DNA of 64,000 bases from Myxococcaceae bacterium (GTDB lineage: Bacteria; Myxococcota_A; Polyangia; Polyangiales; Ga0077539): positions 147,901 to 211,900 of the forward strand of contig SCUS01000102.1 of the NCBI GenBank assembly GCA_004297725.1. The letters run 5' to 3'. The translations under genes were made by a program, and so were the position numbers. Positions 1,605 through 21,205 of the stretch are shown piece by piece; the first letter of the stretch is position 1, and each line of letters starts with the position of its first letter. The notes beneath the pieces were generated by a model, which saw nothing but the letters and a program-made list of their open reading frames with translations, was not told the origin of the DNA and did not search any database.

Positions 1605-1644
1605 GCCGCTGGGAGAGCGTCCCCGACCGCTCGCCCGTCGCAGG

Positions 1645-2754: not shown

Positions 2755-2761
2755 CGGACCA

Positions 2762-3517: not shown

Positions 3518-3556
3518 CGCGGGAGGGGAGCGGAGGAGAGGGGAGCGCGGAGGGAC

Positions 3557-3997: not shown

Positions 3998-4185
3998 CGG
4001 TGGACCCTGATTTCTCTCTTGCGCGCGGGGCGCCGCACCCTTCGCTGGAGGGGTGAAGTCTTCGCCCGCGCCCGGAGGAGGGAGGTAGAACCACGAGGGC
4101 GCGATCCCGTCAAAGGTCGAAGCGCGGCGGAAGCAGCGCCCCGTTGCGATCCCCGCCGCCTCGCTGCGACCATCGGAGACCACCG

Positions 4186-5292
4186 ATGCCCTCCCTCGTC
4201 GCCTCTGCGCCTCGCGCCCTCTTCGCCCTGCTGGCCCTCTCGGCCTGCCACTCGCAGACCCAGCCCACCGACGCCGCCGCCCAGGCCGTCGACGTGCCGG
4301 CGGCCCCGCTCGACGTCTCCCCCGATGTCCCGGTCGATGTCCCGGTCGATGCCCCGGTCGACGTGCCCGCCGCGACCTGCGGAGCGTCGAGCCCCGCGGC
4401 GGTCGCGGCCTGCGTCCGTGAGGCCGACCTCATGCGCGACCTCACGCAGATCGCCGCGCCGAGGCCTCCCTCGAGCGCCCACCACGACGCGGTGCGCGAC
4501 CTCTGCGCCGAGCGCTTCGCCGCGCTGGGCTACACCGTGGAGCGATTCGACTACGGGTCGGGGGTGAACGTGCTCGGGGTGAAGACCGGCGCCGACGCGT
4601 CGGCCCCGCGCGTGATCGTCTCGGCCCACTACGACCACGTCTCCTCGTGCCCCGGGGCGGACGACAACGGCAGCGGCGTGGCGGGGGTGCTCGAGGCCGC
4701 GCGGCTGCTCTCGACGGGCCGCTACCAGCGCACGCTGGTCGTCGCGTGCTGGGACGAGGAGGAGCGCGGGCTCGTCGGCTCGCAGGCCTACGCGCGCAGG
4801 GCGCAGGCCGCGGGCGAGGCCGTCGCCGTGGCCTACGTCTTCGAGATGATCGGGTACCGCTCGACGGAGCCCGACAGCCAGCGGCTGCCGACGGGACTCA
4901 ACCTGGTCTTCCCCCGGCAGTCGGCGCAGATCCGAGAGAACGACAACCGCGGGGACTTCATCACCCTCATCGCCGACGAGGGCGCCCGCGCTCCGGTCGC
5001 GGCGATGGAGCGCGCGGCCGCGGCACTGGCGCTGCCCTCGATCTCGCTCTCGCTCTCGGCGGCGCAGACCCGATCGCCCCTCTACGGCGACCTCCAGCGC
5101 TCGGACCACGCGCCCTTCTGGGCCGCCGGGTACCCCGCGATCCAGATCACGGACACCGCGGAGTTTCGCAACCCCCGCTACCACTGCCGCGGCGGTCAGG
5201 ACACCGTCGACTCCATCGTTCCGGGCTTCATGCGGGCGGTGGTGCAGGCCACGGTCGCGTCCGCCGCGGAGACGCTCGGGCTACTGCCGTGA
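4186..5292 (+). CDS. M28-family zinc aminopeptidase, lipoprotein
   Basis: ATG 4186 with GGAG at 4174-4177 (the track ORF starts at TTG 4144). Lipobox LLALSAC. M28 motifs SAHYDHV, DDNGSGVAGVLEAARLL and WDEEERGLVGSQAY. Confidence 0.8.
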   Translation: MPSLVASAPRALFALLALSACHSQTQPTDAAAQAVDVPAAPLDVSPDVPVDVPVDAPVDVPAATCGASSPAAVAACVREADLMRDLTQIAAPRPPSSAHHDAVRDLCAERFAALGYTVERFDYGSGVNVLGVKTGADASAPRVIVSAHYDHVSSCPGADDNGSGVAGVLEAARLLSTGRYQRTLVVACWDEEERGLVGSQAYARRAQAAGEAVAVAYVFEMIGYRSTEPDSQRLPTGLNLVFPRQSAQIRENDNRGDFITLIADEGARAPVAAMERAAAALALPSISLSLSAAQTRSPLYGDLQRSDHAPFWAAGYPAIQITDTAEFRNPRYHCRGGQDTVDSIVPGFMRAVVQATVASAAETLGLLP

Positions 5293-6273
5293 CGGGCTGA
5301 GCGCCGCCCTCGCCGCGCCCCGCAGCCCGAGGGACTCGTCGGTCACCACCCAGACCGGCACCGCCTCCGCGACCGGGCGCATCCGCCCCTTGTCGACGAA
5401 GGCCTCGAGGAAGCCTCCCCCCGCCAGCCTCGGCAGCACCTTCGCGGCGATGCCGCCCGCCAGGAACACCCCGCCGTACGCCATCACCTGGATCGCCACG
5501 TCGCCCGCCTCCGCGCCGTAGGCCGCCAGGAAGAGGTCGAGCGTCGCGCCGCAGAGCGGGTCGCTCCCGTCCACCGCGTGCTGTCCGATGACGGCCCCCG
5601 GGTCGTCGCGCTCCATCCTCGCGCGCACCTCGGGCGACTCCGGCAGCCCCTCCACGTCGCGCAGGAAGCGATAGATGTCCCGCAGCCCGAGGCCCGACAC
5701 CACGCGCTCGACGGAGACCCTCCCTCCGAGCGTACGGCGCATCCACCCGAGCAGGCGGTCGTCGCGCTCGTGTCGGGGCGAGAAGCCCTTGTGCCCCCCT
5801 TCGCCGGGCAGCACCTGCGGACCGTCGGCGGTCATCACCACCATCGCCTCGCCCAGGCCCGTCCCCGCGCCGAGGACCACGCGCGGCGCGGCCTCGTCGA
5901 AGCGCCCCCGCTGGAGCGGAACCCTCGTGGCGTCGGTGAGCGCCAGCGTCCCCCAGGCGGCCGCGGCGAAGTCGTTGAGCAGCCGCACCGAGCGCAGCCC
6001 CGTGGCCGCCGCCAGGGCGTCGCCGTCGAGGCTCCACGGGAGGTTGGTGGTCTGGCACCGGTTGCCAGCGACCGGACCGGCGACCGCCAGCGAGGCCTCG
6101 CTCACCGGCGTGGCGCTGCGGGAGAGCCAGTCGCGGACGAGGGCGTCGAGGTCGGGCGCCGAGGCGCTTGCGTAGCGGCGCTCGTCGGAGAGGGAGATCG
6201 CGCCGTCAGGGGCGGTCGAGGCGAGCGCGAGGCGGGTGGAGGTTCCTCCGATGTCGCCGACGAGGAGGCGCAT
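5281..6273 (-). CDS. glk: Glucokinase (Glk family)
   Basis: 330 aa. N-terminal MRLLVGDIGGTSTRLALA matches the Glk ATP-binding motif (LxGDxGGTNxRxAL). Length and overall pattern are typical of Glk. Confidence 0.8.
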   Translation of the reverse strand: MRLLVGDIGGTSTRLALASTAPDGAISLSDERRYASASAPDLDALVRDWLSRSATPVSEASLAVAGPVAGNRCQTTNLPWSLDGDALAAATGLRSVRLLNDFAAAAWGTLALTDATRVPLQRGRFDEAAPRVVLGAGTGLGEAMVVMTADGPQVLPGEGGHKGFSPRHERDDRLLGWMRRTLGGRVSVERVVSGLGLRDIYRFLRDVEGLPESPEVRARMERDDPGAVIGQHAVDGSDPLCGATLDLFLAAYGAEAGDVAIQVMAYGGVFLAGGIAAKVLPRLAGGGFLEAFVDKGRMRPVAEAVPVWVVTDESLGLRGAARAALSPSRQ

Positions 6274-6279
6274 GAGCGG

Positions 6280-7236
6280 TCAGAAGGGCGCCATGCCCGA
6301 AGGCGCCGCGGGGATCGACTCCAGGTCGGTGGCCTTCGCGGAGCGGGCGAGGGGATGGCCCTCGCGCACCAGCACCAGCCAGATGCCCAGCACCGAGAGC
6401 ACCTCCGGCGAGAGCGAGCGGTAGGGCTCCGCGAGGGAGTCTCGCAGCTTCGCCACGCGCTCGGTCGAGATGCGCCGCGTCGCCGAGACATGCACCGGGG
6501 TGAACCCGTACTGCTGCGCCACGTCGAGGTATCCCTGGGCGCGCACCCGGTTGGGCTCGCCGATGTGCGTGGTGAGCGAGCGGTAGAGCCGCTCCGGGAA
6601 GAGCAGGAAGTCCAGCTCGTGGTCCCACTCGAAGCCGTGGCTCCGAAGGTCGATCTTGTGGATGAGCACCGCGTCGTCGGTGGTCAGCTCGCGCAGCTCG
6701 CGGTGCAGCGCCTCGAGGTCGCGCACGTGCTCGAGCACCGCCCGGGAGATCACCAGGTCGTAGCGCCTCCCGGTGGCCTTCAGCGAGCTGGCGCTGTGGT
6801 GCACCCGGCCTCCGGCGAGCAGCTCGTCGACCCTCGAAGGGTCTTCGCCCGCGCGCTTGAGAAGATTCTCGTAGAGCGCCCGCAGCCGCGATGGGTCGCG
6901 GGTCTGCAGGTCGAAGGCGTCGTAGCCGTCGACGCTGAGGGCGCCGCGGCCCCGGGCCAGCATGGCCACCGCGCGGGTGTTGCCGGGCCCGAGCTCGAGC
7001 ACCGTGCGACCGCCGAAGAGCGCGGCCTCGTGGCCGTCGCCCTCGCACACGCCCGAGTGCGCCGCGATGCGCTCGTAGTCCTCGACGACCCCTTCGAAGT
7101 AGTCGAGGGCGGCCTCCCCCTCCGCGTCGGCGCCGCGCCCGGTCACGTTGCCCAGGCGCATGAGCCCGTTGGCCAGCGCGGGCGCGTGTCGGAAGGCGAG
7201 GTTTCGTCCGAGGAGATAGCCCGTTACCGCGCCCAT
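6280..7236 (-). CDS. Class I SAM-dependent methyltransferase
   Basis: This is the real 3' part of the artefactual 1416-aa track ORF 6280-10530. SAM motif I VLELGPGNT, and YDLVISRAVLEHVRDL. Start is ATG 7236 or GTG 7269. Ends 6 nt before the glk start, so it is in the same operon. Confidence 0.7.
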   Translation of the reverse strand: MGAVTGYLLGRNLAFRHAPALANGLMRLGNVTGRGADAEGEAALDYFEGVVEDYERIAAHSGVCEGDGHEAALFGGRTVLELGPGNTRAVAMLARGRGALSVDGYDAFDLQTRDPSRLRALYENLLKRAGEDPSRVDELLAGGRVHHSASSLKATGRRYDLVISRAVLEHVRDLEALHRELRELTTDDAVLIHKIDLRSHGFEWDHELDFLLFPERLYRSLTTHIGEPNRVRAQGYLDVAQQYGFTPVHVSATRRISTERVAKLRDSLAEPYRSLSPEVLSVLGIWLVLVREGHPLARSAKATDLESIPAAPSGMAPF

Positions 7237-7326
7237 CCACAGCAGCTTTGTCGGTCGGATTCCGGTCACGCGGCCCGTATAACCCAATCCCCCTCGACTC
7301 GCGATAGAACCAGCGTCCTCCCCACC

Positions 7327-8424
7327 ATGCCCCCCTCCGACTGGTTTTCCCCTCTGCTGCGCCCCGAGCTCGCCGGGCTCACGGCCTACGCCCCGGCGCC
7401 GATTCCCTCGGGCTCGGTGCGCCTCGACGCCAACGAGTCCCCCTGGGCGCTGCCCCCGGAGGCCCGCGCCTCCCTCTCCGCCGCGCTCGCCCGGGTCGAG
7501 CTTCACCGCTACCCCGACGTGCGCGCCACGGCGCTGCGCGAGGCCATCGCGTCGGCGGAGGGGGTCCACCCCGACTCGCTGGTGCTCGGCTGCGGCTCCG
7601 ACGAGGTCATCGGCCTGCTGCTCAACGCCCTCGCCGCCCCGCGCCCGGGCGCCGAGCACGCCGCGGTGCTCTTCCCCACGCCGACCTTCGTCATGTACCG
7701 CCAGACGGCCCTCTCGCTCGGGATGCGCCCCCACGGGGTCGCGCTCGACGAGGCCTTCGACCTCGCGCTCGACCCGCTGCGCGAGCAGCTCCGCCTCCAC
7801 CGCCCCAACGTCGTCTTCCTCGCCTCGCCCAACAACCCCACCGGGACCCTCTTCTCCCGCGATCGCCTGGAGTCGGTCCTCTCGGAGACCGGCGACACCC
7901 TCGTGGTGCTCGACGAGGCCTACGCGGCCTTCTCGGGCGTCCGCTACGGCGACCTCTGCGAGCGCTTCCCCCATGCCGCGCGGCTGCAGACCCTCTCCAA
8001 GGTCGGCCTCGCGGCGCTGCGCGTGGGCTGGGCCATCCTCCCGACGGCTCTCGCCGCGGCGGTGGAGAAGGTGCGCCAGCCCTACAACCTCAACGCCCTC
8101 TCCCAGGCGGCCGCGGTGCACTGCCTCACCGAGCTGCGCCCCGAGGTCGACGCCGCGGTGCAGCGCGTGGTGGCCGAGCGCGCCAGGGTCGAGGCCCTGC
8201 TGCTCGCCATGGACGGGCTGGAGGTGACGCCCTCCGCCGCCAACTTCTGGTGGATCGCCGTGCCCGACTCCGCGGCCAGGGTGTCCGCCGCGATGCGCGA
8301 TCGGGGCGTGGTGGTGCGCTCGTTTCACGCCCACGGAGGGGCGCTCACCAGGCGCCTCCGCATCACCGTCGGAACCCCTTCGGAGAACGATCGGATGCTG
8401 GAGGCCCTGCGGGCGTCGCTCTGA
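7327..8424 (+). CDS. hisC: Histidinol-phosphate aminotransferase
   Basis: ATG 7327 lies within track ORF 5578-8424. Motifs LDANESPW, ASPNNPTG and the PLP-lysine context LQTLSKVGLAALRVGW, with a HisC-like C-terminus LRITVGTPSEND. Confidence 0.85.
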   Translation: MPPSDWFSPLLRPELAGLTAYAPAPIPSGSVRLDANESPWALPPEARASLSAALARVELHRYPDVRATALREAIASAEGVHPDSLVLGCGSDEVIGLLLNALAAPRPGAEHAAVLFPTPTFVMYRQTALSLGMRPHGVALDEAFDLALDPLREQLRLHRPNVVFLASPNNPTGTLFSRDRLESVLSETGDTLVVLDEAYAAFSGVRYGDLCERFPHAARLQTLSKVGLAALRVGWAILPTALAAAVEKVRQPYNLNALSQAAAVHCLTELRPEVDAAVQRVVAERARVEALLLAMDGLEVTPSAANFWWIAVPDSAARVSAAMRDRGVVVRSFHAHGGALTRRLRITVGTPSENDRMLEALRASL

Positions 8425-8451
8425 GCGGGAGGGGCGTAGCGCTGCCTTGAC

Positions 8452-10461
8452 GTGGCGCGCCGGATGGCTTGTGCTCCCGGCCTGATGGTGCACCCGAACG
8501 ACGCGTCGAAGACCGATGACCTGATCGGTCCGACGGCCTTCGGGAAGTACACCATCTTCGCGCGCCTGGGCTCCGGCGGCATGGCCGACGCGCTGCTGGC
8601 GATGCTCCACGGCGACCTCGGCTTCCAGAAGCTGGTGGTGCTCAAGCGCATGCACTCGTCGCTGGGGCGCGACTCGCATTTCGTGCGGATGTTCCTCGAC
8701 GAGGCGAGGCTCGCGGCGCGGCTGAGCCACCCCAACGTGGTGGCCACGAGCGAGGTCGGCGAGACCGACGGTCAGTACTTCATCGCGATGGAGTACCTGG
8801 AGGGACTCTCCCTCGACCGCATCGTGCGGAAGTACATCAAGCTCGGCGGGGGCATCCCCCTGGGCTTCCTCTTCCGGGTGCTCTGCGACTCCCTCGAGGG
8901 CCTCCACTACGCCCACGAGCTGCGGGATTTCGGCGGCCAGCCGCTCGGGGTGGTGCACCGCGACGTGACCCCGTCGAACCTCTTCGTGACCTCCGACGGC
9001 ATGGCCAAGGTGCTGGACTTCGGCATCGCCAAGGCCGCCACGCAGGACGAGGCGACGCGCACCGGCATGCTCAAGGGCAAGCTGGCGTACATGTCCCCGG
9101 AGCAGTTCTACAGCGACCCGGTCGACCGCCGCGCGGACCTCTGGTCGATGGGCGTGCTGCTCTGGGAGATGGTCACCGGCCGCAGGCTCTTCAAGGGCTC
9201 CAACGACGCGGTCACCTACCAGAACATCGTCAGCATGACGATCCCGTCGGTGGGCGAGTACCGGCCCGACGCGCCGGCGACCATCGACGAGGTCATCCAC
9301 TACGCGCTGCAGCGCGACCGCGACCAGCGCTACCAGGACGCCGAGTCGATGCGCCGCGACATGGAGCGCATCCTCCACGCGTCCTTCGGGGGCTTCTCCC
9401 GCGCCGACGTCGCCAGCCTGCTGCGGGTGACCTTCGGCGAGGTGCTGGAGGAGAACCGCGAGACCATCCGGGCCTTCGCGAGCCCGGCGCCTCCCCGCTC
9501 CAACGCGGTCTATGGGATGTCCTCCGCCGGGGAGATCCGCGCCGGGGCGGGGATGACCTTCCCCCCGACCGCGTCGCAGGTCGACCCTCGCGCCCTCGGC
9601 ATCGCGCCCTCTCCGGGCGCCGCGACGCCGCAGCCCCAGCGGGCCCGTCCGCCCGCCAGGACCCTGCTCGATCCGCCGGACCCGGTCTCCGACGCGGTCA
9701 CCCTGCTGGAGCCCCCTCCGGCGCGACCGCCCGCCGACAACAACGACACGCAGACCGACGTCGGCCCGATGAGCGACCCCTTCGCGTCGATTCCTCCCGA
9801 CCCGATACCCGCCGCCGCGCCGCTGCCCCGGCAGCACCCGACGCCGCTGCTCGGGACCCCGCGGATGCCCGACCCCAACGCGCCCCTTCCCCCGCCGACG
9901 GTGAACATCCCTCCCACCATGGCCGTGCCCCCTTCGGCGCTCCCCTCGCAGCCGCCGATGATGGCCCCGCCGATGCCCCGCGTGTCGGGCCTCGCTCCCG
10001 CCGACGAGCGCTACTCCGCCGCGCAGCGCCCCACGGTGATGCTCCCGCCGAAGCAGGGCAGGGTCGAGACCGTGCTCGGGTGGCTCCTGCTGCTGGTGGT
10101 GGTGGCCGTCCTCAGCGCCGCGATCTACAGCCGCTGGGACTGGATCCGCTCGGCGGGGGGCGCCCTCCTCCGCAACGAGCCCGCCCCGGCGATCTACGTC
10201 GGCACCTTCCGGCTGCGCATCACCAGCGACCCCAACCACGCCAGGGTCTTCGAGAACGACCAGGAGATCGGCGCCACGCCCTTCGAGCTGGTGATCCACC
10301 GGGCCCAGGTGGTGCGCCAGCCGAGGCAGTTCGTGCTGCGCGCCCCGGGGCACCAGTCCGTCGCGGTGGTGCAGTCCAACACGCTCCAGGCCGAGACCGC
10401 GGTGCACGTGCCGATGCCCGCCCTCGCTCCCGCCCCGGCGCCCGTGCCGGCCCGGCGCTGA
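8452..10461 (+). CDS. Hanks-type Ser/Thr protein kinase with TM helix and C-terminal PEGA-like domain
   Basis: G-loop LGSGGMA, catalytic loop [10 protein letters not shown], then DFGIAKA and YMSPEQ. Pro-rich linker, TM helix [18 protein letters not shown], and C-terminal [25 protein letters not shown]. Start uncertain (GTG 8452, ATG 8464 or ATG 8485). Confidence 0.85.
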
Positions 10462-10535
10462 CCCGCCCGGAGGGTCTCCCAACACCCCCACTTGCGCGGG
10501 CCGCGTGCGTCGTGCGATTCGCCCGCTCAACCCCT

Positions 10536-10925
10536 ATGAGCACCGCCAGGACCATAGTCAGCACCGAGGCCGCCCCGAAGGCCATCGGCCCGTACTCCCA
10601 GGCCGTCGTGGCCAACGGCTTCGTCTTCTGCTCGGGGCAGATCCCCCTCGACCCGGCCACCGGACAGCTCGTCGGCGACACCATCGAGGCGCAGACCGAG
10701 CGCGTGCTCCAGAACCTCGACGCCGTCCTGCGCGCCGCGGGCACCGACCTCGCCCACGCCGTGCGCACCACCATCTTCCTCCAGGACCTCTCGGACTTCG
10801 CCGCCGTCAACGCGGTCTACGCGCTGCATTTCCCGAGCGATCCTCCCGCCCGCGCGACGGTGCAGGTCTCCCGCCTGCCGCGCGACGTGAAGGTCGAGAT
10901 CGACCTCATCGCGGTGCTGCCTTGA
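10536..10925 (+). CDS. ridA: RidA/YjgF-family reactive intermediate deaminase
   Basis: 129 aa from ATG 10536. APKAIGPYSQAV, FCSGQIPLDP and ARATVQVSRLPRDVKVEIDLIA are typical of the YjgF/UK114 family. Confidence 0.85.
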   Translation: MSTARTIVSTEAAPKAIGPYSQAVVANGFVFCSGQIPLDPATGQLVGDTIEAQTERVLQNLDAVLRAAGTDLAHAVRTTIFLQDLSDFAAVNAVYALHFPSDPPARATVQVSRLPRDVKVEIDLIAVLP

Positions 10926-11755
10926 GCTCGCTGACCCAGCGGCTCGCCTTCGCGGGAGAGCCCTCGTACGTGTCGTCGCCGACCGCGACGTCGGTGCAGT
11001 TCCTGGTGCACACGCGGCTGCTGCCCTCCGGGTCGCTGGCGTGCACCCGGGTGCTGCTCGACCCGTGGGCCATCCACGACGTGGAGTTCGACGAGAGCTC
11101 TCGCACCAAGATCCGCGCGGAGTTCGAGCGCGTGCTGCGGGAGCTCAAGGTGCGCATGGTCCCGGTGTCGCAGGACTACGTCGCCGCGCGCATCCACGAG
11201 GCGATGGCGGCCCACGTGCTCGCGGGCAAGACCCTCACGCCCACGGCGCAGCGGGCGCTGGGGATGATCCCGAAGCCCGCCGGGGTGGTGGTGCACCCGG
11301 CGAAGGTGCTCTCCCCGGTGGCCGACGCCGCCGAGCGGGTCGAGCGCTCGCTGGCGCTGCACACCGAGCCCGAGGTGAACCCGCTGCTCCCGAGCAAGGC
11401 GGAGATCGACGCCGTCGGCGACTACGTGGCGAAGCGCACCGCCGCGGGGGCCGAGCCCGAGGTGACCATCGGCTTCGTCGACCCGACGATCAGGGCGCTG
11501 CGAGAGGGCATCGACGTGGCGTGCACCCGGGCGACGCTCGACCGGCTCGCGACGCAGCTCCGGGACGTGGCGCTGGTCTTCGCCGCCACGCGCCGCCCGG
11601 AGCAGGCGCTCGACGCCGTGGCCGTCGCCGACGCCCTCGACGCGGCGGGCGAGGGGGCGACGCCGCCCGACCAGATCCCCTTCGTGTTCGGGCTCTTCTA
11701 CAAGTTCGCGCTGGTGCAGCGCGAGTACGCCAAGGCCCAGGGCCCCTCGAAGTAG
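10922..11755 (+). CDS. Hypothetical protein
   Basis: TTG 10922 overlaps the ridA stop (cTTGA). Third-position G/C enrichment in this frame begins exactly at 10922. GTG 10970 is an alternative start. No family recognised. Confidence 0.55.
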   Translation: MSSLTQRLAFAGEPSYVSSPTATSVQFLVHTRLLPSGSLACTRVLLDPWAIHDVEFDESSRTKIRAEFERVLRELKVRMVPVSQDYVAARIHEAMAAHVLAGKTLTPTAQRALGMIPKPAGVVVHPAKVLSPVADAAERVERSLALHTEPEVNPLLPSKAEIDAVGDYVAKRTAAGAEPEVTIGFVDPTIRALREGIDVACTRATLDRLATQLRDVALVFAATRRPEQALDAVAVADALDAAGEGATPPDQIPFVFGLFYKFALVQREYAKAQGPSK

Positions 11756-11793
11756 CTCGGGCCTCGCTCACTCCGACGCATCGCCGAGAACCT

Positions 11794-12020
11794 GGCGATG
11801 GGTCGAAGCTCTGGCGGCCCCCTTCCCCGCTGCCGCGCGCCCTAACCCCCGCGGAGCGGGGGCAGGGCTCTGACGGCTGCTGACAGACGGGTCGTACTGG
11901 AAGGCTTCCGCGGTGCCGTTCGAGCACGTGTTCTCGATCCCCTGAGCCCTGCCCCCGCTCCGCGGGGGTTAGGGCGCGCGGCAGCGGGGAAGGGGGCCGC
12001 CAGAGCTTCGACCCATCGCC
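11794..12020. repeat. 227-bp palindromic element: perfect 77-bp inverted arms around a 73-bp spacer (MITE-like)
   Basis: Checked base by base: the reverse complement of 11794-11870 is identical to 11944-12020. Flanked by GAGAACCT (11786-11793) and GAAAACCT (12021-12028). Each arm also holds an internal hairpin (cccccgc-tcc-gcggggg). Both strands translate to the same peptide (GDGSKLWRPPSPLPRALTPAERGQGS) in track ORFs. Confidence 0.9.
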
Positions 12021-12081
12021 GAAAACCTCGTGGTCACGGTCTCCGCCGTCACCTCCGCCGCGCCCATGAAATCCCGTGGTC

Positions 12082-12112
12082 TTGACTTCGATACATACGG
12101 CATATATGTATC
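12082..12112 (+). promoter_or_regulatory. Putative sigma70-type promoter (TTGACT) overlapped by the 23-bp palindrome GATACATA-N7-TATGTATC
   Basis: The most AT-rich stretch I noticed. TTGACT lies at 12082-12087 and a TATATG/TATGTA -10 candidate lies 15-17 nt downstream. The perfect 8-bp half-sites are at 12090-12097 and 12105-12112. GGAGG (12131-12135) sits 8 nt before ATG 12144. Confidence 0.5.
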
Positions 12113-12143
12113 TTGTCGTTAAGCCTGAGAGGAGGCGATTCGC

Positions 12144-13175
12144 ATGGCGGAGATCACCGGGTTCGGTCCCTTTCGTCACCTTCGCGCGGAGAGCGCGAGC
12201 CACGTGCTGCACTACCAGGGAGCCAGGCTCCGACGCAGCGGGCGGGCGCTCTCGTTCTGGTTCTCTTCCTGGTCGGCGAGCCTCGCGGAGGTCCCGCTCG
12301 ACGACCGCGAGGCGGCGATGGCCTTCCACGGCCGCACCGCCGACTTCCAGGACGTGCTGGTGCAGGGCAGCCTCACCTGGCGCATCGTCGACCCGGTGCA
12401 GGCCGCGCAGCGGGTGGACTTCTCCATCGACCCGAGGAAGGGCGTGCACCTGAAGCAGCCGCTGGAGAAGCTGGCCGCGGCGCTCTCGCAGATCGCCCAG
12501 CAGCACGCCGTGGCGAGGGTGCAGTCGGCCCCGTTGCGTGAGCTTCTGGCGATGGGTCCCGAGCCGCTGCGGCTCGCCATCGAGAAGGGCATCGGGGGCG
12601 CCGGGCTGCTCGCCGATGTCGGGGTCGAGCTGGTGGCGGTGCGGGTCGAGCCGGTGCGCCCCGAGGCCGAGGTCGAGCGGGCGCTGGAGGCCCCCTCGCG
12701 AGAGCGGGTGCAGGAGGAGGCCGACGAGGCGGCGTTTCGGCGCCGAGCGCAGGCCGTCGACAAGGAGCGCGCCATCCAGGAGAACGAGCTCGCCAACCAG
12801 ATCGAGCTGGCGAAGCGGGAGACGCAGCTCATCGAGCAGCGGGGCACCAACGCCCGGCGAGAGGCGACGGAGAAGGCCGAGGCCGACCGCATCGCCGTCG
12901 AGTCCAAGGCCGCGCAGTCGAGGATGGAGTCCGCGGCGAGGGCCGAGGCGCTCACCGCCGTCGAGGGCGCACGCCTCGCGCTCGATCGGGAGCGCCTGGA
13001 GTTCCAGCGCACGATGCCGCCGGCGGTGCTCATCGCGCTGGCCGCCCAGGAGCTCGCGACGAAGCTCCAGCGCATCGAGCACCTCACCATCACTCCCGAC
13101 ATGCTCTCGCCGTTGCTGTCCGCGCTTACCGATCGGGCCGCCCCGAACGAGCTTCCGCGGGGCGCCGGGCGGTGA
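12144..13175 (+). CDS. SPFH/band-7 domain protein without an N-terminal membrane anchor, with coiled-coil C-terminus
   Basis: SPFH-like core (ASLAEVPLDDREAAMAFHGRTADFQDVLVQGSLTWRIVDP) followed by a long E/A/R/Q-rich helical region (EEADEAAFRRRAQAVDKERAIQENELANQIELAKRE...). No hydrophobic N-terminal segment is visible. Confidence 0.75.
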   Translation: MAEITGFGPFRHLRAESASHVLHYQGARLRRSGRALSFWFSSWSASLAEVPLDDREAAMAFHGRTADFQDVLVQGSLTWRIVDPVQAAQRVDFSIDPRKGVHLKQPLEKLAAALSQIAQQHAVARVQSAPLRELLAMGPEPLRLAIEKGIGGAGLLADVGVELVAVRVEPVRPEAEVERALEAPSRERVQEEADEAAFRRRAQAVDKERAIQENELANQIELAKRETQLIEQRGTNARREATEKAEADRIAVESKAAQSRMESAARAEALTAVEGARLALDRERLEFQRTMPPAVLIALAAQELATKLQRIEHLTITPDMLSPLLSALTDRAAPNELPRGAGR

Positions 13176-14071
13176 GCACCGTCGCTCCCAGGGTGGTCGT
13201 GGTCACCCGACCCACCGAGTACGAGGCCCTGCTCGTGCGCCACGGCACCCGGGAGCAGGCGCGCTTCTTCCTCGCCCGAAGGGGGCGCTCGCTCGACGAG
13301 CTCGACGAGCGCCACCGCCGTCGGGAGGCCTCGCTGGGGGTGGTGTCGGCGGCGATCCCCGGGCGCTGGCGTCGGGCGCGCATCGACCGGGCCGACCTGA
13401 GCCGCTTCGTCTTCGGCCCCGAAGACGTGGTGGTGGTGGTGGGCCAGGACGGCCTGGTCGCCAACGTGGCCAAGTACCTCCGAGGGCAGCGGGTGCTGGG
13501 GGTCAACCCCGACCCGAGGAGCTACGACGGCGTGCTGGCCTCGCACCCCGCGGAGGCCGTGGGCGACCTGCTCCCGGGCGCCTCGACGGGGGCAGGGAAG
13601 GTCGAGGTGCGGACGATGGTCTCGGCGCGCCTCGACGACGGTCAGCGGCTGCTGGCGCTCAACGAGGTCTTCATCGGGCACCGCACGCACCAGTCGGCGC
13701 GCTACCGGGTGGAGGGCCCCGCGGGCGACGAGGCGCAGTCGTCGTCGGGGGTCATCGTCACCACCGGGACCGGCGCCACGGGGTGGGCGAGATCGATCGC
13801 GAGGCAGCGGGCGGACAAGGTGCCGCTGCCAGGGCCCACCGAGCGGCGCCTCGCGTTCTTCGTGCGCGAGCCCTTCCCCAGCGTCTCGACCGGAACCTCC
13901 CTGGAGTCCGGCTCCGTCGTCGAGGGCGCGACGCTCGCGCTGCGCTCGGAGATGGACGAGCGAGGGACCATCTTCGGCGACGGCATCGAGGACGACCGCC
14001 TGGAGTTCGGCTGGGGCCTGCGCGTGGAGGTCGGCGTCGCCGCAGAGCGCTTGCACCTCGTGCGCGGGTGA
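13172..14071 (+). CDS. NAD kinase-fold protein (divergent NadK paralogue)
   Basis: GTG 13172 overlaps the upstream stop (GTGA). NadK-type motifs are present but altered: VVVVGQDGLVANV (GGDG becomes GQDG), LALNEVFIG (NE motif kept), SSGVIVTTGTGATGW (TPTGSTAY-like). Confidence 0.7.
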   Translation: MSTVAPRVVVVTRPTEYEALLVRHGTREQARFFLARRGRSLDELDERHRRREASLGVVSAAIPGRWRRARIDRADLSRFVFGPEDVVVVVGQDGLVANVAKYLRGQRVLGVNPDPRSYDGVLASHPAEAVGDLLPGASTGAGKVEVRTMVSARLDDGQRLLALNEVFIGHRTHQSARYRVEGPAGDEAQSSSGVIVTTGTGATGWARSIARQRADKVPLPGPTERRLAFFVREPFPSVSTGTSLESGSVVEGATLALRSEMDERGTIFGDGIEDDRLEFGWGLRVEVGVAAERLHLVRG

Positions 14072-14091
14072 CGCTACCCCTCAGCGCTGCG

Positions 14092-14847
14092 ATGTCGAAG
14101 AAGCCCCGAGAGAGCGCCGCCGAGGGGGAGTCGGAGTTCCTCGCGAGCTACGACCCTTCGAAGTACGAGCGCTTCTCGGTGGCCGTCGACGTGGTGCTGG
14201 TGGCGGCCTTCGAGGGCGACCTCTCGACGCTGCTCGTCCCCCGCGACGAGCACCCCTTCAAGGGTCAGCACGCCCTGCCCGGAGGATTTCTCCGCAAGGA
14301 CGAGACGCTCGAGGAGGCCGCGACCCGGGTGCTGCGGAGCAAGGCGAACCTCACGGGCGTCTTCCTGGAGCAGCTCTACACCTTCGGCGAGCCGGGCCGA
14401 GACCCTCGCACCCGGGTGATCTCGGTCGCGTACTACGCGCTCGTCGACGAGGCGCGCTTCCGGGCGGCAGGTGAGCGGGCGGTGCGCACCGGTCGCATCC
14501 GGGTGCCGTGGGAGGGCGAGACCGGCGGGCCGGTGAAGGTCGTCGACGAGAAGGGCCGCGCGCTGCCGCTGGCCTTCGACCACGCAGACATCGTCGGCAT
14601 GGCCGTGAAGCGGCTGCGCGGCAAGCTCGACTACGCCCCGGTGGGCTTCCAGCTCCTGGGAGAGACCTTCACGCTGCTGGAGCTGCAGCGCGTGCACGAG
14701 ACGGTGCTGGGGAGGCCGGTGAACAAGGACTCGTTCCGGCGGCGGATGCTGGCCTCCGGGCAGCTCGAGGCGACCGGGCGCGCCCAGAGCGGCGTCGACC
14801 ACCGGCCCGCGGAGCTGTACCGCTTCGCGCGGCGCTCGGCGGTGTAG
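14092..14847 (+). CDS. NrtR-like Nudix-related transcriptional regulator (degenerate Nudix box plus C-terminal wHTH)
   Basis: Nudix fold with the box GGFLRKDETLEEAATRVLRSKANL, in which the REUxEE glutamates are replaced (R-V-L-R-S-K). C-terminal FDHADIVGMAVKRLRGKLDYAPVGFQLLGETFTLLELQRVHE matches the NrtR winged-helix region. Confidence 0.7.
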   Translation: MSKKPRESAAEGESEFLASYDPSKYERFSVAVDVVLVAAFEGDLSTLLVPRDEHPFKGQHALPGGFLRKDETLEEAATRVLRSKANLTGVFLEQLYTFGEPGRDPRTRVISVAYYALVDEARFRAAGERAVRTGRIRVPWEGETGGPVKVVDEKGRALPLAFDHADIVGMAVKRLRGKLDYAPVGFQLLGETFTLLELQRVHETVLGRPVNKDSFRRRMLASGQLEATGRAQSGVDHRPAELYRFARRSAV

Positions 14848-14856
14848 GAAACGTTC

Positions 14857-15375
14857 TCAGGTCACCAGCCAGATGCGCGCGGCCACCAGCGGCTCCTCGT
14901 CGGGGTGCAGCCCGGCATACCGGGCGGCGTATTCCTCCGCCGCGCCTCGGCCCGGGAAGAGCCCGTTGGCGTTGAGCTGCGAGCGGTCGATGTCGTCGGC
15001 GCCCTTGCCCAGCGGCGACCACCACGGCTCCATCAGCTCGAAGGCGTCCCAGCCGAGCAGCACCATCCCCTCCGCGGGGGGCGTCGTGGCCACCGGCAGG
15101 GAGCCCGGCACCCACGGCCCGTTGGGCACCTCGAAGACGATCACGTCCACCCCGGGGTGACCCAGCTTGTGGGCCTCGTCGCGCAGCGCCAGGGCCTCGT
15201 CGAGGTCCTCGATCACCCCGTCGCCCTCGAGCACGTTGTCACGGTAGCGCTCGTTGAGCGCCCGGCCCTTGCCACGGTGGTTCCACTTCCAGTTGTCGAG
15301 CGCCGGGCGGCACACGCCGCGGTAGGCGCCCTCCTGGAGCGCGGCCTCCAGCACCAGCGCGCCCCGGTCGATCAC
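14857..15375 (-). CDS. Hypothetical protein, translationally coupled to purA
   Basis: 172-aa ORF. Its GTG start overlaps the purA stop (GTGA at 15372-15375). No family recognised. Confidence 0.55.
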   Translation of the reverse strand: MIDRGALVLEAALQEGAYRGVCRPALDNWKWNHRGKGRALNERYRDNVLEGDGVIEDLDEALALRDEAHKLGHPGVDVIVFEVPNGPWVPGSLPVATTPPAEGMVLLGWDAFELMEPWWSPLGKGADDIDRSQLNANGLFPGRGAAEEYAARYAGLHPDEEPLVAARIWLVT

Positions 15376-16646
15376 ACCAGCACCTCACGCCGCACGATGG
15401 TCGCGTCCCGCTCGGCGCCGATGGAGACGATGGCCACCTCCACCCCGGTGCGCGCCTCAATCTCCGTCAGGTAGCGCCGCACGGTCTCCGGCAGCGCCTC
15501 CATGGTGCGCGCCTCGCTCACCGACGCGTCCCACCCCGGCATGTTCAGGAACACCGGCTCCGCCCGATCGAGGTCGTCGATGGGAAACTCCTGGGTCTCC
15601 ACGCCGTCGACCCGGTAGGCCACGCAGAGCGGCACCTCCGCGAGGCCCGCCAGCACGTCCACCTTGGTGACCGCCAGCGCCGTGAGCCCGTTCACCCTCG
15701 CCGCGTAGCGCAGCGCAGGCAGGTCGAGCCACCCGCAGCGCCTCGGCCTGCCGGTGGTCGCGCCGTACTCCTCGCCGACCTCGCGCAGCCGCTCTCCCGC
15801 CTCGCCGAGAAGCTCCGTCGGGAAGAGCCCGTGGCCCACCCGGGTGCAGTAGGCCTTGGTGATCCCCACCACGCCGGTGATGCGCGTGGGGCCGACCCCG
15901 ACGCCCGTGCACGCCCCGCCAGACACCGTGTTGGAGCTGGTCACGAAGGGGTAGGTGCCGTGGTCGAGGTCGAGCAGCGTCCCCTGGGCGCCCTCGAAGA
16001 CCACCCGCTTCCCCGCCTTGATGGCCTCGTCCACCGCGATGGACGCGTCGCCCAGCAGCGGCCCGATGACGGCCATGTACGGCGCCACCCAGGCCAGCGC
16101 CCCGGCCACCGTCGGCGCCTCGACGCCCGCCGCGCGAGCGCGCTCGGCCCACACCTCCACCAGCGCCCCGACCCGGTCGTTCGCCCTGGCCGGGTCGACC
16201 AGGTCGCCCAGCCGTACGCCGATGCGCGCGGCCTTGTCGCTGTAGGTCGGGCCGATGCCGCGGCCGGTGGTCCCGATGGAGCGGGGGCCCGCGTTGGCCG
16301 CCCGGTCGATGGCCGACTGGAAGGGGAAGGTCACGTGCGCCCTGCGAGAGATCAGCAGCCGCTCGGTCACCCCGAGGCCCTTCGTCTCGCAGGTGGCGAT
16401 CTCGCCCGCCAGGATCTCCGGCGCCACCACCACCCCCGCCCCCAGCACGCAGCGAGCGCCCGGGTGCATCACCCCGCTCGGCAGCAGGTGCGTCACCAGC
16501 TTCTGCCCGCCGACCTTCAGCGTGTGACCCGCGTTCGCGCCGCCCGCGAAGCGCACCACCATCTCCGCTCGCGCGGAGATCAGGTCGACGATCTTCCCTT
16601 TGCCCTCGTCGCCCCACTGGGCGCCGACCACCACGATCGCAGCCAT
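15372..16646 (-). CDS. purA: Adenylosuccinate synthetase
   Basis: 424 aa. VVVGAQWGDEGKGKIVD, GGANAGHT and TTGRPRRCGWLD are PurA hallmarks. Confidence 0.95.
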   Translation of the reverse strand: MAAIVVVGAQWGDEGKGKIVDLISARAEMVVRFAGGANAGHTLKVGGQKLVTHLLPSGVMHPGARCVLGAGVVVAPEILAGEIATCETKGLGVTERLLISRRAHVTFPFQSAIDRAANAGPRSIGTTGRGIGPTYSDKAARIGVRLGDLVDPARANDRVGALVEVWAERARAAGVEAPTVAGALAWVAPYMAVIGPLLGDASIAVDEAIKAGKRVVFEGAQGTLLDLDHGTYPFVTSSNTVSGGACTGVGVGPTRITGVVGITKAYCTRVGHGLFPTELLGEAGERLREVGEEYGATTGRPRRCGWLDLPALRYAARVNGLTALAVTKVDVLAGLAEVPLCVAYRVDGVETQEFPIDDLDRAEPVFLNMPGWDASVSEARTMEALPETVRRYLTEIEARTGVEVAIVSIGAERDATIVRREVLV

Positions 16647-16763
16647 ATGCGGTCCTCCACGGACGCCGTCGGTTCTCGAAGCGGCGGCATCCTACGGGTT
16701 CGCCGCCCGGTTGGCGATGCGCGTTTGCAGGACGCTCGGTCCATGGGCTAGACGGAGCCCCCT

Positions 16764-17816
16764 GTGTCGACTCGACGGCTCCTCGTGTGGCCCCGACCCG
16801 ACGCCGCGAACCCCTACCTCTCGCGGCTGGTGGCCTCCCTGCGCGCTCGCGGGGTCGAGGTCGCCACGGCGCCCCGCCTCGCCGCACTCTGCGCCTTCCC
16901 CCGAGGCGCCCGCTGGCTGCACCTCCACTGGCCCGAGTGGATGATCCACCACCCCGACCGCAGGCTCTACCGCGCCCGCACGGCGTGGCTCCTCGGGCTC
17001 CTCGACCTGGCCCGCGCCCGCGGCCTCTCCCTCGCCTGGACCGCCCACAACCGCATCGGCCACGACGACCCGCACCCCGACCTCGGCCTCGCCGCGCGCC
17101 GCGCCCTGCTGCGTCGCTGCTCCGTCGTCTTCGGCCACTTCCCCGCCGCCCTCGACGCGCTCTCCGCGATGGGCTTCTCGGGCCGCTTCGTCCATCAGCC
17201 GCACCCCCACTTCGACGACGACTACCCCGACCCCTTCGCCGCCGACCCGTCCGCCCGCTCGGCCTTCCGCCGCTCCCTCGGCCTCTCCGACGACGCCCTA
17301 CTGCTGGTCTCCCCGGGCTCGATGGAGCCCTACAAGCAGCTCCCCCTGCTCGCCCGCGCGCTGCGCTCGCTCGACGGCCACCGCTTCGTCTGGATCCCCG
17401 TGGGCCGTGCCCATCCCGACGAGCTCACCGCGCTCCGCGCCGCCATCGGCGACGACCCGCGCCTCCAGCCCCGCCCCGGCTTCGCCTCCCGGGAGTCTCT
17501 CTCCTCCCTGGTCTCCGCCGCCGACGCCACGCTGCTCGCCCACCACGACCTCTTCACCTCCGGGAGCGCCGTGCTCTCCTTCACCCTCGGCACCCCGGTG
17601 ATCGGCCCCCCGGTGCAGCACCTGGCCTCCTTCGCGCCCCGACCCTTCTTCCTCCCGTGGACCCCGCCAGACCCCGCGGCTCTCGGTGATCAGCTCGCTC
17701 GCCTTCACGGCCTCGCCCCCTCGGTGCGCGCCGAGGCCCGCGCCGCCGCGCTCTCCCACACCTGGTCCGACGCCGCCGCCACCGTCGACGATGCCCTCTT
17801 CGGAGCCGCCGCGTGA
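16764..17816 (+). CDS. Putative GT-B-like glycosyltransferase
   Basis: 350-aa ORF with GTG start, first gene of a 4-gene overlapping operon. Weak resemblance to GT-B glycosyltransferases (WLHLHWPEW N-terminal half; C-terminal half with a FTSGSAVLSFTLGTPVI-type segment). The family call is tentative. Confidence 0.5.
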   Translation: MSTRRLLVWPRPDAANPYLSRLVASLRARGVEVATAPRLAALCAFPRGARWLHLHWPEWMIHHPDRRLYRARTAWLLGLLDLARARGLSLAWTAHNRIGHDDPHPDLGLAARRALLRRCSVVFGHFPAALDALSAMGFSGRFVHQPHPHFDDDYPDPFAADPSARSAFRRSLGLSDDALLLVSPGSMEPYKQLPLLARALRSLDGHRFVWIPVGRAHPDELTALRAAIGDDPRLQPRPGFASRESLSSLVSAADATLLAHHDLFTSGSAVLSFTLGTPVIGPPVQHLASFAPRPFFLPWTPPDPAALGDQLARLHGLAPSVRAEARAAALSHTWSDAAATVDDALFGAAA

Positions 17817-18964
17817 TCGGCGTCGTCTCCCTCGACGGCGCCCCCGCCAAGGACCTCGCGGGCCTCCCCCTCCCGCTGCGCACGCTGCTGCTGCTTCAGT
17901 CCGAAGGGGTCGAGTGGCTCGGCCTCGTGGGCGACTCCGCCGCCGAGACCGCCGCCCGCTGGAGCGCCGACGACCGGCTGCGCATCCCCCTCCGGGCGCT
18001 CACCGGCGCCCCCCCGGAGGAGCACCTCGCGGTGCGAGGCGACACGCTGCTCGACCGCTCCACCGTGAGGGCGCTCGCGGCCTCCCCCGCGGTGCTCTTC
18101 GACCAGACCGAGGTGCTCGCGGTGCACCGCCGCCCCGGTCACGAGGGCGGACTGCTCGACGACGGCGGCGAAGGATCGCTCCGTGACCTCTCCGGCTGGC
18201 GTCGGGTGCGCGACGCCCGCGAGGCCTCCGCGGCGCTCGAGGGATTGCTCCAGTCGCTGCGAAAGCCCCAGGACGGGATGGTCTCCCGCGCCATCAACCG
18301 CACGCTCTCCCTCGCCGTCACGCGCGCCCTCTGCGGCACCGGGCTGCGTCCCAACACGGTCTCCATCGGCATCCTCGCCATCGGCGCTGCGGGCGCCCTG
18401 CTCGCCACGCAGGGGACGCCCGGTGCGCTGGCGATGGGGGGACTTCTCTTCCAGGCGCAGTCGGTGCTCGACGGCTGCGACGGAGAGCTCGCCCGCCTCA
18501 CCTTCCGCGGCTCCAAGGCCGGGGAGTGGATCGACACGGTCGGCGACGACCTCACCAACTACGCCTTCTTCGCGGGCCTCTCGGTGGGCCTCACCCGCGC
18601 GGGCCACGGCCCCTGGTCGATGCTCTTCGGCGCGGTGGGAGTGCTCGCTGGCTTCGTGGCCTCGGGCATCGAGTACCGCTACCTCCTCGCCCTCGGAACG
18701 GGCGACCTCGCGAAGTACCCGCTGGGCTTCGGCGACGACCCCACCGGCGCCGTCGAGGAGCGTGGGATGCAGCGGCTGCTTGCGCTCGCCCGGCCGCTCT
18801 TCAAGCGGGATTTCTTCGTGTTCGCGACGATGCTGGCGACCGCCCTCGGGCAGATCGCCTCGCTGGTGATGCTCGGGGCCTTCGCCGTCGGTGCGCTGGT
18901 CACCCTCTCCGCGGTGCTCCGCTCGGAGTGGTCGCGGCGCGGCGCGCTGCCGGAGAGACGGTAA
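17813..18964 (+). CDS. CDP-alcohol phosphatidyltransferase-family membrane protein with an N-terminal soluble domain
   Basis: The start overlaps the upstream stop (GTGA). Exact family signature D-G-x2-A-R-x8-G-x3-D-x3-D in DGELARLTFRGSKAGEWIDTVGDD. Several TM helices. The ~170-aa N-terminal domain may be nucleotidyltransferase-like (uncertain). Confidence 0.8.
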   Translation: MIGVVSLDGAPAKDLAGLPLPLRTLLLLQSEGVEWLGLVGDSAAETAARWSADDRLRIPLRALTGAPPEEHLAVRGDTLLDRSTVRALAASPAVLFDQTEVLAVHRRPGHEGGLLDDGGEGSLRDLSGWRRVRDAREASAALEGLLQSLRKPQDGMVSRAINRTLSLAVTRALCGTGLRPNTVSIGILAIGAAGALLATQGTPGALAMGGLLFQAQSVLDGCDGELARLTFRGSKAGEWIDTVGDDLTNYAFFAGLSVGLTRAGHGPWSMLFGAVGVLAGFVASGIEYRYLLALGTGDLAKYPLGFGDDPTGAVEERGMQRLLALARPLFKRDFFVFATMLATALGQIASLVMLGAFAVGALVTLSAVLRSEWSRRGALPERR

Positions 18965-18970
18965 GGGGCG

Positions 18971-20251
18971 ATGCCGGGTCGGGTGCTGATGGCCTCGTGG
19001 CTCTTTCCGCCGCACAGCTCCATCGGAGCCAAGCGGGCGTGGCGCTTCGCCAGGCACCTGCCCGCCCTGGGATGGCTGCCGACGGTGCTGTCCCGACGCG
19101 TTCCTCCGCCAGGATCGTTCGACGCCTCGGACTGGACGCTGCCCCCCGAGGTGACGCTCAGCCCCACCTACGACGCCGCGTGGATGAGCCTGCTGGCCGA
19201 CCGGGGAGCGCGCGCCGTCGTCCGTCCTTCGTCCCAACAGGCCTCCGCGGACGCCCTCCAGCGCCCTCTCTCCGCTCGCCTCCAGGAGCGGTGGGACCGC
19301 TTCCTCGACGCGGTGGTGCCGATGGAGACGGCCATCATCCACGCGCCCCACGCGTCGCGCGAACTCGACCGGCTGCTGCCCTCGCACGACCTGCTCTGGA
19401 CGACCAGCTACCCCTATCACACGCACGCCATCGGCCTCTCCGCGGCGCGCCGTCACCGACGACCCTGGGTGGCCGACCTCCGCGACCCGTGGACCCCCAA
19501 CTGGGTGCATCGTAGGAAGTTCGCTCCGGTGCGATCGATCGAGGCCCGCTATGAGCGCGCGGTCTTCGAGGCCGCCGACGCGATCGTGGTCACCACCGAG
19601 ACCCTCGCCTCGATGGAGCGGGAGCGCTTCCCCCAGTGGGCCGGGAAGATCCACTGCGTGCACAACGCCTTCGACGGGGAGCCCTCGCCGCCGAGGCCTG
19701 CGTCCCCGGGAGGCGGGCCGCTGCGCTGGGTGCACTTCGGCAACGTGTACGGGCCCTGGTCGCTGGAGACGGTGTTTCGCGCGATGGCCAGGCGTCCGGG
19801 GAGGGTGGTGCTCGACAACCACGGCAAGCTCTCCGACCGCGACCGCGACCTCGCGGCCTCGCTGGGCCTTCGCGACGCGGTGAGGGTGATGCCGACGCTG
19901 CCCTTCGAGGAGGGCATGGCGCGCCTGCGCGCCGCCGACGCCCTGGTGCTCGCCGCCTGGAACCACCCGGACGCGGGCCTCTACCTCCAGGGCAAGCTCT
20001 ACGACTACCTGAGCGCGGGCAGGCCCATCGTGGCCGAGTCGGCGCAGCGCGAGGTCGGGGACATCGTGCGTCGCACCGGAGCGGGCCATGTGATCGCCCC
20101 CGGGGACGTCGCCGCGATGACCGCGGTGATCGATGGCACGTCGGGCGAACCCGCTCGAGACGAGTCGGCGGTGAGGTACTTCTCCGCGGCCGAGGCGAGC
20201 GCCCGGCTCGCGGCGATCTTCGACAGTGTGACGGGGAGGAAAGCGGGCTGA
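18971..20251 (+). CDS. Glycosyltransferase, GT4-like (GT-B fold)
   Basis: 426 aa. MASWLFPPHSSIGAKRAWRFARHL, DLRDPW and a C-terminal Rossmann-like half (LVLAAW...GKLYDYLSAGRPIV) are typical of GT4-type enzymes. Confidence 0.7.
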   Translation: MPGRVLMASWLFPPHSSIGAKRAWRFARHLPALGWLPTVLSRRVPPPGSFDASDWTLPPEVTLSPTYDAAWMSLLADRGARAVVRPSSQQASADALQRPLSARLQERWDRFLDAVVPMETAIIHAPHASRELDRLLPSHDLLWTTSYPYHTHAIGLSAARRHRRPWVADLRDPWTPNWVHRRKFAPVRSIEARYERAVFEAADAIVVTTETLASMERERFPQWAGKIHCVHNAFDGEPSPPRPASPGGGPLRWVHFGNVYGPWSLETVFRAMARRPGRVVLDNHGKLSDRDRDLAASLGLRDAVRVMPTLPFEEGMARLRAADALVLAAWNHPDAGLYLQGKLYDYLSAGRPIVAESAQREVGDIVRRTGAGHVIAPGDVAAMTAVIDGTSGEPARDESAVRYFSAAEASARLAAIFDSVTGRKAG

Positions 20252-21198: not shown

Positions 21199-21205
21199 GA
21201 GCGCG

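Follow-up and report, generated by a model that had tools for sequence, protein, structure and literature searches.

REPINs are doublets of REP sequences that form hairpins and are mobilized by RAYT tyrosine transposases; both they and most MITEs are far more abundant than the copies seen of the repeat family described here. REPINs number tens to hundreds per genome, and a single-copy RAYT gene flanked by the repeats goes with them. In their published description, REPINs have conserved inverted ends, a less conserved spacer between them, and a hairpin fold (PMC3116915). A GTAG or CGTC tag at one end is the criterion for a REP, some RAYT genes have been reported to be flanked by long terminal inverted repeats (TIRs) and accompanied by families of TIR repeats that are moderately abundant, and repeats of the REP/BIME type are credited with transcription termination and mRNA stabilization (PMC3733652). 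For the Myxococcota, the literature that we searched contains no report of a RAYT and none of small palindromic repeats.

We analyzed a stretch of DNA 64 kb in length, referred to as the window, which has a G+C content of 73%. Named homologs of the SPFH protein encoded just downstream of the locus of interest come from Polyangiales, Polyangiaceae and Sandaracinus, and the host is an uncultured Polyangiales-like member of the Myxococcota. A first-pass annotation of the window had called a perfect inverted repeat with 77-bp arms, and the call is exact: positions 11794-11870 and 11944-12020 are complementary at 77 of 77 positions (100%), separated by a 73-nucleotide spacer, for 227 bp in all. This is the sole long inverted repeat of the window and is present in one copy; sub-sequences of the arms were not found elsewhere in the window, where the chance expectation is 0. 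Folded as a single strand, the whole region has a predicted energy of -231.9 kcal/mol versus -132.7 +/- 5.6 kcal/mol for shuffled sequences (z = -17.7), and the spacer taken by itself is predicted to be unstructured (z = +0.7 relative to shuffled sequence). As suggested, each arm also contains its own hairpin, a mini hairpin with a 7-bp stem, but the predicted fold of an isolated arm is no more stable than that of shuffled controls (z = -0.3). G-quadruplex motifs in the arms were dropped as a clue: the window is GC-rich and contains 49 clusters of them, so that their presence is uninformative. The parts of the palindrome are given below, where C07 and C25 denote two of the related copies described further on.

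11794-11870, no strand: left arm, 77 nucleotides, composed of a 23-nucleotide outer part (GGCGATGGGTCGAAGCTCTGGCG, with a homologous sequence at the left end of C07) and a 54-nucleotide core; complementary to 11944-12020
11817-11870, no strand: core of the left arm, 54 nucleotides, GCCCCCTTCCCCGCTGCCGCGCGCCCTAACCCCCGCGGAGCGGGGGCAGGGCTC; identical in six arms (window, C07 and C25)
11846-11862, no strand: mini hairpin of the left arm, CCCCCGC GGA GCGGGGG, from sequence reading and a predicted single-arm DNA fold
11871-11943, plus strand: spacer (loop), 73 nucleotides, non-palindromic; 85% identical to the 74-nucleotide spacer of C25
11944-12020, no strand: right arm, 77 nucleotides; Logan contig L001 starts 30 nucleotides inside it
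11944-11997, no strand: core of the right arm, 54 nucleotides, reverse complement of 11817-11870
11952-11968, no strand: mini hairpin of the right arm, CCCCCGC TCC GCGGGGG, from sequence reading and a predicted single-arm DNA fold

Several dimensions of the palindrome might raise the suspicion of an assembly artefact or of a local fold-back duplication: the arm length of 77 is a common assembler k-mer size, the sum of arm and spacer is 150, a common read length, and in several assemblies there are contigs that end at the element or close to it. We nevertheless regard this explanation as extremely improbable. Two contigs assembled at k=31 from run SRR8426590, both identical to the window, end exactly 30 nucleotides inside the arms (L025 in the left, L001 in the right). 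A genuine repeat interrupts a de Bruijn graph in just this way, which speaks against an artefact, and a different assembler has thus recovered both arm junctions from the reads. The left arm of 23 + 54 = 77 nucleotides recurs in C07, which was assembled independently by JGI, and other loci carry imperfect arms of 69 and 51 nucleotides with spacers of 34-38 or 74 nucleotides. As for a fold-back duplication, the flanks of the palindrome are unrelated, unique genes and not mirror images of each other. An artefact is therefore rejected by the k=31 contig ends together with the homologous copies of other dimensions in independent assemblies; in these organisms the palindrome itself interrupts short-read assemblies here.

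The family has four known members, each at an intergenic site unrelated to the others, and they come from at least three metagenome assemblies. Scanning the whole collection of JGI metagenome contigs with an exact 22-mer from the arm core, which diverged copies such as G44 escape, gave three true loci, including two true relatives of the window element (C07 and C25), both in assembly Ga0208628. The fourth match to the 22-mer, in L013, proved to be an ordinary, unrelated terminator matched by chance. There is one matching locus in each of the 387-kb and 130-kb contigs, as there is one copy in the window. The remaining member, G44, was reached through a peptide search with translations of the arms, which returned one spurious open reading frame (ORF) among 5.8 billion proteins.

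Copy C07, L014 about 323-504, assembly Ga0208628: between a partial ORF with no Pfam match and an MFS transporter gene
Copy C25, L016 and L015, assembly Ga0208628: between a reading frame that is SDR-like by sequence reading and a thiolase gene
Copy G44, L017 401-540, assembly Ga0105044: between divergent genes

The end of L016 and the start of L015 abut inside the C25 spacer with neither gap nor overlap (130-kb contig Ga0208628_1000025), and we read them as adjacent pieces of one contig; alternatively, a circular contig may have been opened inside C25. Upstream of G44, positions 46-395 of L017 hold four copies of the motif GGTGGGTCACG, the last of which abuts the left arm of G44, and a similar motif, CGTGGTCACGG, lies just to the right of the window element (12034-12044).

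Further searches yielded no additional members. An nhmmer profile built from the eight arms found neither extra nor solo arms over about 300 kb of collected sequence, and no matching copy was present in plasmid, phage and viral collections. Rfam holds no family for the element, giving only sub-threshold matches to miRNA precursors, which any long hairpin attracts, and the related loci gave no match there. A scan of reference genomes returned only six chance matches of 20-22 nucleotides, a result that says little given that its query was the terminal 20-mer, part of the copy-specific outer arm. The copies have no reading frame in common, and the element is non-coding. The palindrome belongs to a small family of intergenic repeats that form hairpins, found in uncultured myxobacteria and not described before.

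The pattern of conservation among the copies is uneven. The 54-nucleotide core shows 0 differences in 6 x 54 nucleotides across the arms of the window element, C07 and C25. The arms of G44 differ from it at one and five positions, respectively, with the same GGA-to-GGG change in both. The spacers fall into two length classes, of 73/74 nucleotides (window and C25) and 38 nucleotides (C07 and G44), and the 38-nucleotide type lacks the middle of the 73-nucleotide spacer. Within these classes spacer identity is 85% for the window element versus C25 and 82% for C07 versus G44. The outer 23 nucleotides pair perfectly only in the window; in the other copies they have decayed without compensating changes. 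Had the cores of the window element and C25 drifted as the spacers did, some 16 differences should separate them; 0 were seen, which points to a constraint on the sequence of the core and not on pairing alone. The first-pass view that so perfect a repeat must be either recent or selected can thus be sharpened: from locus to locus the core stays invariant, and it is the remainder that diverges. Such invariant cores, set against drifting spacers and ends, clearly bear the mark of selection acting on the element.

In layout, the family resembles REPINs and BIMEs. A pair of conserved units in inverted orientation, both of which contain a short GC-rich palindrome, enclose a less conserved spacer of discrete length classes and are predicted to form a hairpin (identical cores, spacers 82-85% identical, z = -17.7), and the copies are extragenic, often just after a stop codon, with no coding capacity. 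Unlike REPINs, the invariant unit is 54 nucleotides long versus about 16-25, the arms reach up to 77 nucleotides, and the whole element is 227 bp versus about 70-110. The mini hairpin of the palindrome, flanked by CCCTAA and CAGGGCTC, has no GTAG or CGTC tag beside it, and single copies are seen per 64-390 kb versus hundreds in a REPIN genome. Given the missing tag and the very low copy number seen, membership among the REPINs is not established.

The same is true of membership among the classical MITEs, although the element is small (less than about 500 bp) and non-coding, with terminal inverted repeats (77/77 arms in 227 bp). Like the ERIC/IRU repeats and the Correia elements of Neisseria, it consists of 100-300 bp of non-coding, intergenic and probably transcribed DNA with long inverted ends, and it shares with this type of element presence or absence at the strain level and short flanking direct repeats. 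A comparable likeness exists to the repeats with long TIRs that occur near RAYT genes (PMC3733652). Two features set the family apart from MITEs: its flanking repeats are of no fixed length, and the very ends are its least conserved part, the conserved portion being internal to the arms. Among the candidates put forward in the first-pass annotation, a MITE or other non-autonomous element fits best, in view of the related copies at unrelated loci and the absence from a close strain, with the varying flanking repeats counting against it; as these vary and no parent element was found, it is a putative classical MITE.

The palindrome lies between two genes on the same strand, in front of a sequence that looks like a promoter.

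10922-11755, plus strand: upstream gene, 277 amino acids, with its stop codon 38 nucleotides before the element; the orthologs are all 273-287 amino acids long
12082-12112, plus strand: TTGACT box and dyad GATACATA-N7-TATGTATC, native sequence outside the element, conserved in the window, L018, L002-L004, L019 and L021
12144-13175, plus strand: downstream gene, SPFH/Band_7 by Pfam match, in synteny with L002, L005, L018 and L019

The upstream gene had been drawn as a 416-amino-acid ORF, which does not hold: orthologs of 273-287 amino acids cover 67% of that ORF and support the 277-amino-acid gene, whose product matches no Pfam family. Over-long ORFs typical of high-GC DNA are found here on both strands (1416 amino acids at 6280-10530, minus; 416 amino acids at 10505-11755, plus). 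From synteny with L018, the real genes of 6280-11755 are a methyltransferase (minus strand), an aminotransferase, a Ser/Thr kinase, RidA (10536-10925) and the 277-amino-acid gene (10922-11755). Elsewhere in the window, at 28822-31467, four consecutive same-strand ORFs of 200, 143, 145 and 391 amino acids have a third-position GC of 0.98-0.99, a strong coding signal, and no Pfam family.

The SPFH gene opens a conserved cluster that continues with a 299-amino-acid protein and a NUDIX/NrtR-like protein. Its perfect 8-bp dyad and TTGACT box hardly vary among all the relatives of the cluster, even where protein identity falls to about 87%, and together look like a promoter with an operator; the regulator acting at it is perhaps the NUDIX/NrtR-like protein, whose gene is the second one downstream. 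Between the end of the element and the TTGACT box there are about 60 nucleotides. Its description as lying upstream of the SPFH operon promoter is therefore reasonable.

To place the element among close strains, we compared the window with L018 (JGI Ga0066412), which is collinear with it and 96-97% identical over 21 kb. BLASTN aligns L018 1-10857 with window 897-11776 and L018 10859-20834 with window 12061-22051. The sole large difference is a segment of 284 nucleotides in the window that is replaced by a single A in L018, and this segment ends 21 nucleotides before the TTGACT box. A second contig, of 1.13 Mb, has the same neighborhood.

11777-12060, no strand: strain-specific segment, 284 nucleotides, made up of the palindrome with 17 nucleotides on its left and 40 on its right; absent from L018
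11771-11779, plus strand: left junction repeat of the 284-nucleotide indel, CTCCGACGC; L018 has a single CTCCGAACGC
12053-12061, plus strand: right junction repeat of the indel, CTCCGCCGC
11771-11793, plus strand: left copy of a longer direct repeat, CTCCGACGCATCGCC followed by GAGAACCT, the last 8 nucleotides being a candidate target duplication
12006-12028, plus strand: right copy of that repeat, consisting of the last 15 nucleotides of the right arm followed by GAAAACCT

The presence of the element is thus strain-specific. As the segment missing from L018 lies between the 277-amino-acid gene and an untouched SPFH promoter, the element is dispensable to the operon, and its absence here in a 97%-identical strain means that it behaves like a small parasitic DNA element and not like a piece of the neighboring operon. 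The first-pass annotation had held that a single-copy sequence conserved at this locus would speak against mobility; what is found is three other, unrelated loci and absence from a strain 96-97% identical. The direction of the change may be read either way. The empty allele of L018 lacks the 57 nucleotides beyond the palindrome, with a 9-nucleotide repeat at the junction, and the 284-nucleotide difference would fit equally well an insertion that duplicated 9 bp or, in the other strain, a deletion that ran from one short repeat to the next; in the case of a deletion, the long palindrome would stimulate the loss between the short repeats.

In more distant relatives (about 87% protein identity; L019-L024 and L002-L004), two extra genes lie between the 277-amino-acid and SPFH genes: in L019 (8835-10550), a 292-amino-acid DUF952/DJ-1_PfpI fusion and a divergent 239-amino-acid UbiE-like methyltransferase. 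Both are missing from the window (11756-12143) and from L018, and the palindrome sits at their deletion junction. The extra 17 + 40 nucleotides of the strain-specific segment show no significant similarity to the 5' region of the methyltransferase in these relatives (p = 0.36-0.7), as remnants of it might. Downstream of the orthologous gene in a relative with 86% identity, the corresponding intergenic site (L026 5674-5825) holds an unrelated cluster of imperfect inverted repeats, with arms of 26-28 nucleotides at 86-88% and an 11-bp perfect pair, inside which the Logan contig ends. By sequence, the site downstream of the 277-amino-acid gene may be a hotspot for palindromic insertions, and the palindrome marks a strain-variable spot beside a conserved SPFH operon.

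The location of the copies bears on whether the host, and not the element, maintains the structure. If transcribed as the 3' end of the mRNA of the upstream gene, the hairpin could act as a factor-independent terminator or insulator, as a block to 3' exonucleases or as an RNase III site, in which case the core would be kept because the host needs it, with mobility secondary or absent. Three of the four copies start about 10-40 nucleotides after a stop codon, with that gene co-directional with the next; the predicted hairpin is very stable, the core is invariant across loci, and the roles in termination and mRNA stabilization reported for REP/BIME-type repeats (PMC3733652) provide a precedent. 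We nonetheless consider such a module unlikely. The conspecific strain does without the element at this locus, and G44 lies between divergently transcribed genes, which does not suit a dedicated terminator. Nor is there a U-tract after the hairpin, the right arm being followed by GAAAACCTCG, and a terminator scan finds nothing at the element. A structural role would also tolerate compensatory changes, whereas here the core is invariant and the outer pairing decays. A host-selected structure is, however, possible alongside mobility, the two being compatible and not exclusive.

Mobility would be expected to leave traces at the insertion sites, and the first-pass annotation had pointed to flanks resembling an 8-bp target-site duplication. 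The flanks GAGAACCT (11786-11793) and GAAAACCT (12021-12028) do match at 7 of 8 positions, and only 0.16% of 8-mer pairs at the same offset in the window match at 7/8 or better. The 15-mer repeat noted as an alternative is also present and is in fact longer, extending to 23 nucleotides with 20 identical (11771-11793 versus 12006-12028), a pair that is unique within the window at that offset and stringency. Its right copy overlaps the last 15 nucleotides of the right arm. A clean 8-bp duplication is doubtful all the same, as the lengths vary among copies and the strain indel measures 284 and not 227 nucleotides. The flanking repeats are of 8 nucleotides (23 when extended) in the window and 17 in C07, amount only to a low-complexity GAGAGA match in C25, and were not found at G44; they exceed chance in two copies, the window element and C07 (L014), where 17 exact nucleotides overlap a truncated arm. 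Variable-length repeats that overlap the end of the element are unlike the fixed-length target duplications of DDE-type enzymes. Around C07, the flanking direct repeat extends to 40 nucleotides at 78% identity with a 17-nucleotide exact core, CCGTAGCGCGTCGCTCG (L014 290-329 and 488-527); it takes in the stop codon with which the upstream gene ends and stands in place of the final ~10 nucleotides of the right arm, and is unlike an ordinary short target duplication.

No gene for a mobilizing enzyme was found near any copy. Pfam scans of about 40 well-supported ORFs in the window detected no transposase, RAYT, recombinase or integrase domain, which agrees, as does the annotation of the collinear L018, with the first-pass statement that the window has no transposase or recombinase gene; none was found beside the other family copies either. 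The genome-wide scan, for which the copy-specific 20-mer was used, gave no parent insertion sequence whose ends match.

These searches also bear on a role as the substrate of a site-specific recombinase, either as a switch that inverts the 73-nucleotide spacer next to the SPFH promoter or as a folded site like the attC sites of integrons. The arrangement is suggestive, with long inverted repeats around a short unique segment some 60 nucleotides upstream of a promoter. By sequence reading, GCCCTAAC and GTTAGGGC in the arms resemble the integron R'' and R' boxes, RYYYAAC and GTTRRRY. Sites of the attC type are folded, imperfectly symmetric sequences of 57-141 nucleotides with inverse core boxes, and here the two boxes span 137 nucleotides end to end. 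However, each box is one inserted base off its consensus, the stem pairs perfectly and has no extrahelical bases, its inverted repeat runs 45 nucleotides beyond the boxes, and neither a cassette array nor intI was found in the window, so that the element does not qualify as an attC site. As for an invertible switch, the inverted repeats are present, but the spacer contains no promoter-like site, the 38-nucleotide spacer type lacks the middle of the longer one, and no recombinase or integrase domain occurs in the window or beside the other copies. We consider a recombinase substrate very improbable.

We therefore lean, with modest confidence, toward the palindrome being a non-autonomous, REPIN- or MITE-like repeat, with the invariant cores of its arms serving for mobilization in trans. 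Most probably, the 54-nucleotide cores would be recognized by a transposase whose gene lies elsewhere in the genome and which copies or moves the element into intergenic DNA, and only those lineages of the element with intact cores would keep spreading. Spreading limited in this way would explain why the cores are identical while the spacers and outermost ends drift. Against mobilization in trans stand the lack of transposase, RAYT and recombinase domains in the window and beside the other copies, and a known copy number that is very low, with one copy in 64 kb and no more in about 300 kb of collected sequence. The flanking repeats differ in length and overlap the end of the element, and the empty allele, lacking 57 extra nucleotides and carrying the 9-nucleotide junction repeat, is equally well accounted for by a palindrome-stimulated deletion. 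Finally, the outermost bases, which matter most to cut-and-paste transposases, are the least conserved part of the element.

More speculatively, and with a low probability in our estimation, the 54-nucleotide core may be the recognition module of a novel element-enzyme partnership in the Myxococcota, or a host regulatory DNA or RNA module that has been co-opted. One candidate for the partner would be an enzyme that binds hairpins, RAYT-like or of another type, and whose sequence-specific substrate is unusually long. If such a partnership is real, it would be one that persists at very low copy number through vertical inheritance and host tolerance, unlike the high-copy REPINs.

The general kind of element to which this palindrome belongs is already known, and the family itself is a real, rare and previously undescribed palindromic repeat family. 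Its 54-nucleotide core provides a defined probe for the family, and for the enzyme that would mobilize it, in the large, repeat-poor genomes of uncultured Polyangiales.
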